Shown piece by piece: positions 6,715 to 9,700 of a DNA stretch of 11,326 bases (positions are counted from its first letter, which is position 1; the number at the start of each line of letters is the position of its first letter). The stretch covers positions 1 to 11,326 of the forward strand of contig CBDDTI010000636.1 of the NCBI GenBank assembly GCA_965233585.1, written 5' to 3'. The notes beneath the pieces were generated by a model. The model did not search any database. It saw nothing but the letters and a program-made list of their open reading frames with translations, and was not told where the DNA came from. The stretch is from a bacterium. Its GTDB lineage: Bacteria; SAR324; NAC60-12. The position numbers and the translations under genes are program-made.

Positions 6715-9700
6715 CCCTGTTGAACCTGACCTGGCTCTGCAGCGAAGCCTCCTAAATCTTCTCCGGAATCTGGCTCTGCGCAAAAGGCTCCCCGACCTTT
6801 TCCGGATTTTTTTCGGAACCTCCGGAACCGTTTCCGGAACCCTATCCCTTCTCCGGAACTTCGGAAATTCTTCTCCGGAAACCTAGTGAACCTGACTGGG
6901 CTCTGCACCAAACAAAGCCTCCCAAACTTTTTCCGAAACCCTGTTGAACTTGACCTGACTCTGCAGTAACCGGAGCCCTTTTCCGGAACATTCTTTGGAA
7001 CTCTATTGAATTTGACCTTCTCTGGGACCTTTTTCCCAGACCTCCTCCGGAACCTTTTCCAGAACCTTATTCACCCCTTTTCCAGAACCTTCTCTTTTCC
7101 GAACCCTGATGAACCTGACTTGGCTCTACCAAATCTTCTCCGGAACCTGGCTCTGCGCAAAAAAATCCCCGACTTTCTCCGGAATTTTCTCCGGAACCGA
7201 GGCTTGGAAACTTCTCCGGAATTGTCGTTGGAATCTTGTTGAGGCTGACTTGGCCTTGCATCAAGTCTTCCTGGAATCTTTTCCGGATTCCTGTTGAACC
7301 TCACCTGGCTTTGCACTAAAGCTTCCCGGATTTTTCTCCGGAAATATTGCGGAATTTTGTTGAATTTGATCCGGAACATTTTAGAATCTCGTTGAACCTG
7401 ACCCGGTGCCCGCACCAGTGCACACCGGAGCTATTCTGGATTGAAGATCGGATTAGTCTACGCTGTAGGGAAATAACGATACTATTATGTTTTTATTTGA
7501 TTAATCTGGTTATATATAAATGATTGGGTATTTTGTTACTTTAAAAAATATATATTGGTTGAACGAATAATATTTAAAAATTATAATAAATTTCGGCGGT
7601 ATCCCTAATAGTCGCGACATTTTTTAATTGTTTTCCGAAGCGTATTGCAAAGCTAAGCACTGGAAACCCTTTGCTGAATTTATTGCTGACTCGGCCTTGT
7701 ACCAAAGATTTCCCAAACCTCTTCTTCCGTAACCTTCTCCGGAACCCGTTGAACTTGATTTGGCTATACACCAAAGCTTCCTAAACCTTCACCAGATTTT
7801 TTATCGGAACCCTATTGAACCTGACTTAGATCTGCACCAAAACCTCCTAGAACCTTCTCCGGAAACTTCTCAGGAACCCTATTGAACCTGACCTGCCTCT
7901 GCACCAAAGCCTCCCAGACCTTCACCGGATTCTTTTCCGGAACCTTGTCCGGAATTTTCTCCGGAATCTTCTCCGGAACCCTATTGAATCTTATTTGACT
8001 TAACACCAAATACTCCTATAATTTTTTTCCGGAACCTTTTCTGGAACCTTCTCGAGAACCCTGTTGAACCTGACGTGGCTTTGTATTAAGTCTTCCTGGA
8101 TTTTTTTTTCGGCGGATTTTTGTAGAATTTTACCCGACTTTGCACTAAAGTTTCCCGGATTCTTCTCCGGAATTTTGTTGAATTTGATCCGCAATATTTT
8201 CGGAACCTCGTTGAACCTGACTCGGTGCCCGTACCAGTGCACACCGGAACTATTCTGGATTGAAAATTCGATTAGCCTACACTGTAGGAAATAACGATAC
8301 TATTATTTTTTTACTGGATTAATCTGGTTATGTATAAATTATCGGGTATTTTGTTAATTTTAAAAAAAATATATATTAGTTGAAATTTTAAAAAAATAAT
8401 AAATTTTGGCGGTATTCCTAATAGTCGCGATGTTTTTTTAAATAAATTTGCCGAAATGTGCTGCGAAGCTAAGCGCTGGAAATCTATTACTGACTTAGCC
8501 TTGTTCCCAAGATTCCTAAAATTTCCTTTTCAGCAATCTATTCCGCAATTTATTTAACTTGACTTGGCTATATACTAAAACCTCCTAAACCTTTACTGGA
8601 TTTTTTATCGGAATCCTATTGAATCTGGTTTAGATTTACACTACTAAAACCTTCCAGAACCTTCTCCGGAAACTTCTTAGGAACCCTATTGAACCTGACC
8701 TGCCTCTGCACCAAAGCCTCCCAGACTTTCACCGGATTTTTTTCCGGATTCTTGTCCGGAATTTTCTCCGGAATTTTTTTCGGAACCATATTGAATTTTA
8801 CTTGACTTAACACCAAACGCTCCTATAATTTTTTCCGGAGCCTTTTCTGGAACCTTTTTTGAACCTGACTTGGCTTTGTATTAAGTCTGCCTGGAATTTG
8901 TTTCGGAAGTTTTTTCGAATTCCTGTTGAATTTTACCCGATTTTACATTAAAGCTTCCCGGATTCTTCTTCGGAAATTTTGCGGAATTTTGTTGAATTTG
9001 ATCCACAATATTTCCGGAACCTCGTTGAACCTGATCCGGTGCCCGCACTAATGCATACCGGAACTATTCTGGATTGAAGACCCGATTAGCCTACGTTGTT
9101 GGGAAATAGCGATATTTTTTTTCTTGGATTAATTTGGTAATATATATATTATTGGATATTTTGTTAATTTAAAATAAAAATATTAATTGAACGAATGATA
9201 TTTTAAAAATAATGATAAATTTCGGTGGTATTCGTAATAGTTACAATATTTTTTTTTTATATATATTTTTTTTTCGAAGCGTATTGCGAAGTTAAGTATT
9301 GGAAACCCTTTGCTGAATTTATTTCTGACTCGGCCTTGTACTAAAGATTCCTAAAACCTCCTTTTCCGCAACTTTCTCCGGAACCCGTTGAATTTGACTT
9401 GGCTTTGTACTAAAACCTCCTAAACCGGATTCTTCATCGGAACCCTATTGAACCTGACTTGGATTTGTACCAAAACCTCCCGGAACCTTTTCCGGCAACT
9501 TCTCCGGAACCCTGTTGAACCTGAGCTGCCTCTGTACCAAAGCTTCCCAGCCCTTCACCGGAACCTTTTCCGGAACCCTGTTGAACCTGATCTGACTCTA
9601 TACCCGATTGAATTTGACTTGGCTCTGCACCAAAGCCTCCCAAACCTTCTCCGGGACCTTCGGAACCTTTTCCGGAATCTCGTTGAACCTGACCCGGCCC

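Follow-up and report, generated by a model that had tools for sequence, protein, structure and literature searches.

Repeat-induced point mutation (RIP) of fungi, AID/APOBEC editing of mobile elements and the ordinary decay of methylated CpG are the described systems closest to the locus reported here. Fryxell and Zuckerkandl are also said to have proposed, in 2000, an isochore-type feedback between AT-richness, DNA melting and cytosine deamination, acting at CpG sites of megabase mammalian isochores. In coral symbionts, averaged GC dips of ~6-10% are described at convergent gene-array (Hi-C domain) boundaries of Symbiodinium microadriaticum in the boundary sections of Nand et al. 2021 (PMC8110479), and 5-hydroxymethyluracil is enriched at boundaries and repeats of Breviolum minutum according to the corresponding passages of Marinov et al. 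2024 (PMC11071213). A default CG methylation near 70% is given for Symbiodinium in the methylation passages of de Mendoza et al. (PMC5890265), and the part of a survey dealing with RID/DNMT4-type enzymes (PMC9998398) lists none outside diatoms in the MMETSP transcriptomes, dinoflagellates included. Here we report an 11,326-base contig (C636 of the 12.0-Mb, 747-contig assembly G000; "the window" is this contig in its entirety), in which tandem copies of a non-coding repeat element lie beside an AT island and have lost C to T far more often than the reverse. On balance, we consider it probable that element copies at the margin of this 1.5-kb island undergo a gradual, regional and strand-biased GC-to-AT erosion dominated by C>T. 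A first-pass annotation of the window had proposed a RIP-like hypermutation that largely spares CpG; its direction of change holds up, its sparing of CpG does not.

Positions 6700-9770 consist of ~3.5 tandem ~815-bp units, each made of the element and an AT-rich spacer; the mutual likeness of the three units is ~80%. The element comprises a head (cttcggtggtatccccaacagccgcagc...), an array of 12-nt CCTTCTCCGGAA units with a ~41-nt core, and a tail ending ...gctgttggggaaaaa. Undegraded relatives stand on two other contigs (C51:10881-11630 and C464:1800-1322), and a partial relative is found on C594. When the seven heads and tails of the window were polarised with C51 and C464 as outgroups, using only the columns where both agree (225/373), C>T had occurred at 72 of 211 sites and G>A at 33/171 (vs. 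22/169 for T>C and 15/202 for A>G), and transversions made up 67 of the 209 changes. Majority-rule three-way polarisation of the 560 well-aligned columns gave 46 C>T, 14 T>C, 13 G>A, 14 A>G and 34 transversions. The excess of C>T over T>C thus persists after polarisation by either method.

The pairwise observations behind the first-pass annotation were reproduced. Between the 31-mers at 9390-9420 and 7884-7914 there are 8 mismatches, of which 6 are C>T, one is G>A and one C>G; the two are different subrepeats of the unit rather than orthologous positions. The tail cassettes at 7388, 8207 and 9021, said to differ almost only by transitions, do so at 26 of 30 pairwise differences (8, 10 and 12 of 80 positions; p=2e-9 against one third, and p=2e-4 against 0.544, the mean transition share of the assembly's repeat pairs). 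On the + strand, C was lost about twice as fast as G (p=0.001), which fits the C-poor, G-retaining composition of the AT tract (C 5.0% vs. G 11.9% on that strand, a GC skew of ~+0.5). Some changes are common to all three units, such as aacag to aatag in each head, and others are private, suggesting that erosion took place both before and after the tandem duplication.

The composition of the window is ordinary over its first 4 kb (GC ~46%). From position 5745 it falls stepwise, being 58% GC at 5750-6700, 49% at 6700-7387, 39% at 7388-9760 and 17% at 9761-11226. After array 0 and tail 1, the succession of spacer, head, array and tail recurs three times (heads and arrays 1 to 3, tails 2 to 4), and the AT tract closes the series:

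5745..6699, no strand: GC-rich stretch (58%) before the repeat arrays; no long open reading frame (ORF) of known family; CpG observed/expected (o/e) 0.53.
6700..7387, + strand: array 0, 12-nt CCTTCTCCGGAA units and ~41-nt core; 49% GC, least eroded.
7388..7474, + strand: tail cassette T1.
7475..7590, no strand: AT-rich spacer 1; without relatives in the rest of the assembly, also when collapsed to purines/pyrimidines.
7591..7670, + strand: head H1; C>T/G>A changes relative to C51 and C464.
7671..8206, + strand: array 1.
8207..8292, + strand: tail cassette T2.
8293..8403, no strand: AT-rich spacer 2.
8404..8480, + strand: head H2.
8481..9020, + strand: array 2, more eroded than any other array; in an ungapped 53-mer consensus scan 40% of its consensus C sites show C>T, a noisy measure giving secondary support only, as indel copies lose register (C464 reaches only 66% identity).
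9021..9106, + strand: tail cassette T3.
9107..9219, no strand: AT-rich spacer 3.
9220..9305, + strand: head H3; the allele in contigs of two other studies (X5/X7) differs at 9292 and 9299.
9306..9678, + strand: array 3, shorter, ~47% GC and near the abundant family consensus.
9679..9770, + strand: tail cassette T4, little eroded; GC drops sharply where it ends.
9771..11226, no strand: AT island, 17% GC; single-copy in the assembly and present in three other studies at 1-2.5% differences.

ORFs longer than 70 aa in the repeat part belong to no recognisable family, and none was expected. As to the element itself, CCCCAACAGC in its head is matched by the reverse complement GCTGTTGGGG in its tail, and the two form an inverted repeat of 10 nt, seen at C51:10889-10909 and 11611-11626 and in the heads and tails of the window. 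Both undegraded copies are flanked by A-rich DNA and terminate in a short A run. Candidate classes are a SINE-like (short interspersed nuclear element) or a MITE-like (miniature inverted-repeat transposable element) origin.

The assembly is a mixture of 5 large coding-dense contigs and hundreds of small contigs with few long ORFs, and has at least three sources: a coding-dense bacterium (the 5 large contigs), coral-like contigs and dinoflagellate-like contigs. Four-mer clustering assigned 452 low-coding contigs (4.2 Mb) to the coral-like set and 186 (2.5 Mb), the window among them, to the dinoflagellate-like set; bacterium and dinoflagellate still fall into a single cluster, and were told apart by ORF coverage. 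A repeat-sharing graph, tried for the same separation, gave one giant component of 609 contigs and was given up in favour of k-mer clustering. Contig C51, which has the repeat family in common with the window, bears a 292-aa ORF whose best named relatives are from Cladocopium goreaui and Durusdinium trenchii, in agreement with the Symbiodiniaceae-type host assumed in the first-pass annotation. Among public data, 20 runs from 9 studies contain words of the stretch, several being labelled as coral metagenome. We therefore take the window, judging from sequence relationships checked through C51 alone, to be probably nuclear DNA of a Symbiodiniaceae-type dinoflagellate. The coral-like contigs have a CpG o/e of 0.92, and 14 further contigs (287 kb) one of only 0.24.

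Nor does the window stand alone: in the Symbiodiniaceae-like contigs, further repeat families located in or next to AT islands are eroded in the same way. Self-comparison of the low-coding contigs yielded 8071 repeat pairs with at least 25 transitions, of which 137 had an asymmetry of at least 0.6, collapsing to 47 separate loci. At 23 loci GC had dropped by at least 0.08 relative to the partner; all 23 are in the dinoflagellate-like set, and many adjoin flanks of 13-25% GC. Most repeats are unaffected: asymmetry was below 0.3 in 6878 of the 8071 pairs (85%). The targeting of a region, which the first-pass annotation had offered as one possibility, is thus borne out as far as a directional, C>T-dominated erosion tied to the AT island is concerned, while its other possibility, that repeats as such trigger the change, is contradicted by these symmetric pairs.

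The folded spectrum of the 23 loci, per partner base, was C>T 23.1%, C>A 6.3%, C>G 3.5%, T>C 3.6%, T>A 4.3% and T>G 2.3%, with 1328 GC>AT vs. 291 AT>GC changes and a transition/transversion ratio of 1.58 (1220 vs. 770). With family consensuses as the reference, ten decayed copies showed, relative to 101 normal ones from the same families, C>T raised 5.0-fold, C>A 2.7-fold, T>A 2.45-fold and C>G 2.0-fold, T>G unchanged (x1.0) and T>C lowered (x0.74). A broader pipeline covering 100 families and 947 copies recovered 11 mildly and 1 strongly AT-shifted copy and was set aside, as dc-megablast rarely finds decayed copies.

The dinoflagellate-like contigs carry AT islands that are kilobase-scale, of 10-25% GC and often strand-skewed: 174 islands below 25% GC make up 5.3% of bases, 52 of them at least 800 bp long, vs. 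1.4% of bases and 4 such islands in the coral-like set. Purine/pyrimidine 40-mers matched DNA of at least 40% GC elsewhere for 102 of 316 islands (16 in a reversed-sequence control). Many of these matches are ordinary edge repeats; ~10 are deep conversions, from 37-52% GC to 19-37% GC.

Some further features of these contigs may be recorded here. The window carries a 94-bp tandem repeat at 4338-4769 and an ACAACT-type microsatellite at 4888-5400. The 94-bp repeat (4.6 copies over 4083-4790) is a member of a family dispersed over dozens of contigs, strongly AT-eroded copies of which, at C547:14179-14599 and C646:6666-7198, adjoin flanks of 13% GC. At 1690-3130 lie ~2.7 tandem copies of a ~540-bp unit that is not AT-rich and whose differences look transition-rich, CpG losses included. 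A 5.3-kb island on C51 (C51:17622-22933; L001 8600-13900) has 10-18% GC and a GC skew of +0.4 to +0.57 throughout. It stands directly downstream of a long C/A-rich microsatellite, and the window has the same order, with its microsatellite ahead of the island at 9771-11226.

We then looked at where within the decayed loci the changes fall. The rate of C>T depended on local AT: across classes of flank AT, measured on the older sequence, non-CpG C>T climbed from 13.5% to 30.3% in decayed loci (vs. 5.1% to 6.6% in baseline pairs), and the correlation also held within loci (r 0.10, p=1e-10). It did not depend on a neighbour motif, either 3' (CpA 0.17, CpC 0.14, CpG 0.20, CpT 0.20) or, for non-CpG C>T, 5' (A 0.178, C 0.151, G 0.182, T 0.180), and no TC, CC or WRC preference emerged. 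Strand-coordinated runs of C>T vs. G>A, which bursts of change would leave, did not exceed random placement in the 23 loci (mean z 0.07, p=0.78).

The erosion can also be followed between strains. Contigs of run X1, possibly the source sample itself, are identical to the window over the spacers and the entire AT tract, and those of three other studies (X5, X7 and X12) have the same structure at single-copy depth with 1-4% differences. The comparison uses 23 of the 32 listed pieces (of 8941 in all); 8 X1 pieces were dropped, as was X12 record 11, which has 17 other letters in 169 and is probably a paralogue. Among the listed pieces, 8 of 2093 positions differed in 6500-7338 (7 pieces) vs. 88 of 4375 in 7418-11310 (16 pieces; p=3e-8), a ~5-fold higher density of listed differences in the eroded part compared with the DNA 500 bp upstream of it. 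The 40 listed variant rows, many of them from abundant paralogues, comprise 30 with T/A in the window vs. C/G elsewhere, 3 of the reverse kind and 7 transversions. For the AT tract, which is single-copy, the window has T/A and the three other studies C/G in all 7 listed rows (p=0.016), suggesting that the window's lineage carries the more eroded allele. Over 9292-9342, six T's of the window are C in the X5/X7 allele and one C of the window is T; that allele has C at 9292 and 9299 and T at 9306, and in the paralogous units C is the older state at all three positions. These strain-level differences indicate that erosion is still ongoing.

As to mechanism, the gradual regional erosion that we favour would most simply arise from ordinary hydrolytic deamination of cytosine, methylated or not, if island DNA opened more easily or were repaired less well than its surroundings. 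AT-richness would then feed further decay, and islands would expand up to the next stable GC-rich segment. The lack of a force restoring GC, for example biased gene conversion, may contribute.

A number of observations weigh against this explanation. The A/T skew of the AT tract is ~0, whereas pure C>T on the + strand would enrich T. Outside the contig, no GC-normal ancestor of 9750-11226 or of the three spacers turned up among purine/pyrimidine-collapsed 36-mers of the 12 Mb, and blastn gave low-complexity AT matches only; that the tract was made by erosion is thus judged from other islands. At 9770, where the element tail ends, the edge is sharp, and array 3 with T4 (~47-50% GC) stands uneroded between two AT-rich stretches. 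The latter would need recent conversion or insertion, or a strong effect of local stability; conversion or insertion is suggested by the closeness of array 3 to the abundant family consensus. Across loci, strand bias follows flank GC skew weakly and without significance (rho 0.42, p=0.10, n=16). The "ancestral" states of the other loci are those of GC-richer partner copies or of majority consensuses, and the spectrum comes from only 10 to 23 decayed loci. The frequency of islands is not representative, given that the assembly covers <1% of a dinoflagellate genome and was binned near 40% GC, which enriches it for island-rich contigs. Finally, the opposite shifts of GC>AT and AT>GC classes are explained almost as well by fixation bias in its pure form.

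According to that alternative no special mutation is at work: islands would merely lack the GC-favouring fixation bias (biased gene conversion or selection) that keeps the rest of the genome at ~45-50% GC, and would drift to an AT-rich equilibrium. It predicts what the decayed copies show, GC>AT classes up, AT>GC classes down or flat and the GC<>GC and AT<>AT classes up ~2-fold, and accumulation is gradual and unclustered, as it would be by drift. The gene-density sections of the S. microadriaticum study (PMC8110479) are also in line with it, as GC there tracks gene density and dips at domain boundaries. However, C>T and C>A should be equally affected by a fixation bias, and they rose 5.0- and 2.7-fold, respectively. 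Such a bias should moreover be free of context, whereas C>T rose 6.8-fold at non-CpG and only 2.3-fold at CpG sites, with a rate that doubles with local AT. Nor does it give strand asymmetry, and islands reach a GC skew of +0.5 over kilobases. We consequently regard it as unlikely.

It has also to be considered that the eroded units are merely of greater age than other copies, in a genome whose spectrum is AT-biased throughout, and that the AT tract is an unrelated, pre-existing sequence beside which the element landed. The sharp edge at the end of the tail would be expected in this case, as would a tract without relatives even in purine/pyrimidine space, and the family copy on C594 is likewise embedded in AT-rich DNA. 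Age would further account for the ~2-fold rise of the neutral classes in decayed copies, but it should scale all classes, and T>C (x0.74) and T>G (x1.0) did not rise. Insertion age cannot explain ~5-fold denser strain differences at orthologous positions among the listed pieces either, and we give this alternative a slim chance.

About as improbable, in our judgement, is the explanation put forward in the first-pass annotation, a RIP-like or AID/APOBEC-like hypermutation of repeats from which methylated CpG is protected. Tandem ~815-bp units of this likeness are a classic RIP substrate and C>T dominates their changes; in addition, a shielding of Symbiodinium cDNA by methylation against APOBEC-like editing is speculated on in a passage of de Mendoza et al. 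(PMC5890265). The protection of CpG was, however, not borne out by per-site counts. Transitions were as frequent at CpG as at non-CpG cytosines of the window (12/43 vs. 45/159 by majority rule and 14/48 vs. 76/275 with the outgroups, both p>0.8), an equality that the annotation itself had named as refuting it. The same equality was found in the 23 heavily decayed loci (209/897 vs. 826/3525) and at matched local AT. That none of the changes between the two 31-mers falls at CpG is uninformative, 7884-7914 being devoid of CpG. Similarly, the reported decay of TCCGGA to forms keeping the CG is balanced by losses: beside 18 intact copies in 7388-9760, six one-step derivatives keep it (TTCGGA 5, TCCGAA 1) and six lose it (TCTGGA 5, TCCAGA 1).

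Other counts appear at first to favour protection. In the 12-nt units of 7388-9760 the TCCGGA core (CCGG) was changed at 8 of 140 positions vs. 43 of 140 for the outer cytosines, but core and outer positions contrast likewise in array 0 (6700-7387; 8/88 vs. 29/88), which is less eroded, and column counts of the 12-mer are therefore no measure of CpG protection; the contrast may reflect old family variation or a constraint on the palindrome. In the AT tract, the CpG o/e of 2.05 (18 seen vs. 8.8 expected, p=0.004) is accompanied by a CpC o/e of 2.14, suggesting that the remaining G and C are patchy rather than that CpG is specially kept. Consensus polarisation gave a mild deficit of CpG transitions in decayed copies (63/333 vs. 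325/1291 at non-CpG, p=0.017), although CpG changed 2.2 times as often as non-CpG in normal copies. The deficit vanishes at matched flank AT, as the surroundings of CpGs are richer in GC. In symmetric repeat pairs of the dinoflagellate-like contigs, taken as the baseline, CpG transitions were 2.05 times as frequent as non-CpG ones. The signature of methyl-CpG decay, in which CpG goes first and fastest, was lacking in the window and the heavy loci, where CpG equals non-CpG. In islands all cytosines speed up, and the CpG excess is gone (ratio 1.0) since non-CpG catches up.

Hypermutation by an enzyme of either kind agrees no better with the remaining data. The transition/transversion ratio of 1.58, the lack of a 3' or 5' motif and of strand-coordinated runs, and the 6878 symmetric repeat pairs all argue against it, as does the single-copy AT tract, which has the same directional strain differences as the repeats. 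Thresholds of the RIP indices were used for comparison. With a TpA/ApT of 220/281 (0.78) and a (CpA+TpG)/(ApC+GpT) of 115/61 (1.89), the indices of the AT tract are negative, and its CpA, TpG and TpA o/e are 1.00, 1.20 and 0.87, respectively, with neither a shortage of CpA/TpG nor a surplus of TpA. A RIP-like process thus falls on transition purity, dinucleotide preference, indices and general action on repeats alike.

As to enzymes of the required types, RID/DNMT4 was not found outside diatoms in the MMETSP part of the survey cited above (PMC9998398), and a PF00145 profile search of our assembly, with its ~2.5 Mb of dinoflagellate-like DNA, returned 5 weak partial matches. The sole AID/APOBEC-like gene found in the assembly is an intact 444-aa ORF at C574:3652-4986 (L008 1396-2730, minus strand), with an APOBEC4-like domain (PF18774, E=6e-18) preceded by a weak NHL-repeat match. 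The named ones among its 177 relatives are from the coral Stylophora pistillata, and C574 falls in the coral-like k-mer cluster, not in that of the window. By these similarities it is probably a coral host gene caught in the bin; we rejected it as a candidate enzyme, and it is silent on the dinoflagellate.

An artefact (bisulfite-like converted reads, DNA damage or chimeric assembly), which the C-poor, G-retaining AT tract might bring to mind, has a negligible chance of having made the T/A alleles and was rejected, since contigs of four public studies bear them (X1 identically over spacers and tract; X5, X7 and X12 in the same structure at 1-4% differences), words of the stretch recur in 20 runs from 9 studies and one strand shows both C>T and G>A.

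A RIP-like defence with shielded methylated CpG would have been striking in a dinoflagellate; it does not hold here. Instead, some kilobase stretches of a coral-symbiont genome lose G and C several times faster than their neighbours, in a strand-biased manner that depends on local AT, and this may offer a mutational explanation for the published GC dips at dinoflagellate domain boundaries. Only tentatively, and with a modest chance of being right, we would extend it to kilobase-scale AT islands in general (10-25% GC vs. ~45% around): these would be written and enlarged by self-reinforcing, strand-asymmetric cytosine deamination, which would make any DNA landing in them AT-rich, transposon copies included, would be the mutational origin of GC dips at domain boundaries and would make boundary sequence a product of chromosome function rather than an encoded signal. 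A practical consequence is that GC-based binning pulls island-rich eukaryotic contigs into bacterial genome bins. Our searches of the open-access literature did not turn up any account of such erosion in dinoflagellates, whether RIP-like or as a regional loss of C to T.

Known systems share some features with the erosion and differ in others. Ordinary methyl-CpG decay is present in this genome as the 2.05-fold baseline, but its CpG excess is gone in eroded copies, where the ratio is 1.0. AID/APOBEC editing of retroelements and viral cDNA likewise leaves strand-biased C>T or G>A in mobile-element copies; here there is no TC, CC or WRC motif and no clustered run, and flanks and spacers are affected too. 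The feedback attributed to Fryxell and Zuckerkandl has in common with our data that C>T rises with local AT, and differs in that our effect is of kilobase scale, has sharp edges and is borne by non-CpG cytosines. Fungal RIP, as in Neurospora crassa with RID and DIM-2, also makes duplicated DNA AT-rich via C:G to T:A changes and leaves AT-rich blocks beside normal DNA. By contrast, ~40% of the changes here are transversions, without CpA preference or TpA excess, most repeats escape, single-copy island DNA changes too and nothing points to strand-coordinated batches; a RID-type enzyme, moreover, is not reported for dinoflagellates in the relevant part of the survey (PMC9998398). With the GC dips at Symbiodiniaceae boundaries, as the boundary sections of the two papers present them (PMC8110479, PMC11071213), the islands share local AT-richer, non-genic and repeat-associated stretches. 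The dips there are averaged and come without a mutational origin in those sections, whereas here single islands have 10-25% GC over 1-5 kb, are strand-skewed and carry a polarisable erosion of repeats. Globally, we see in the window a known kind of process in a new instance in this lineage.

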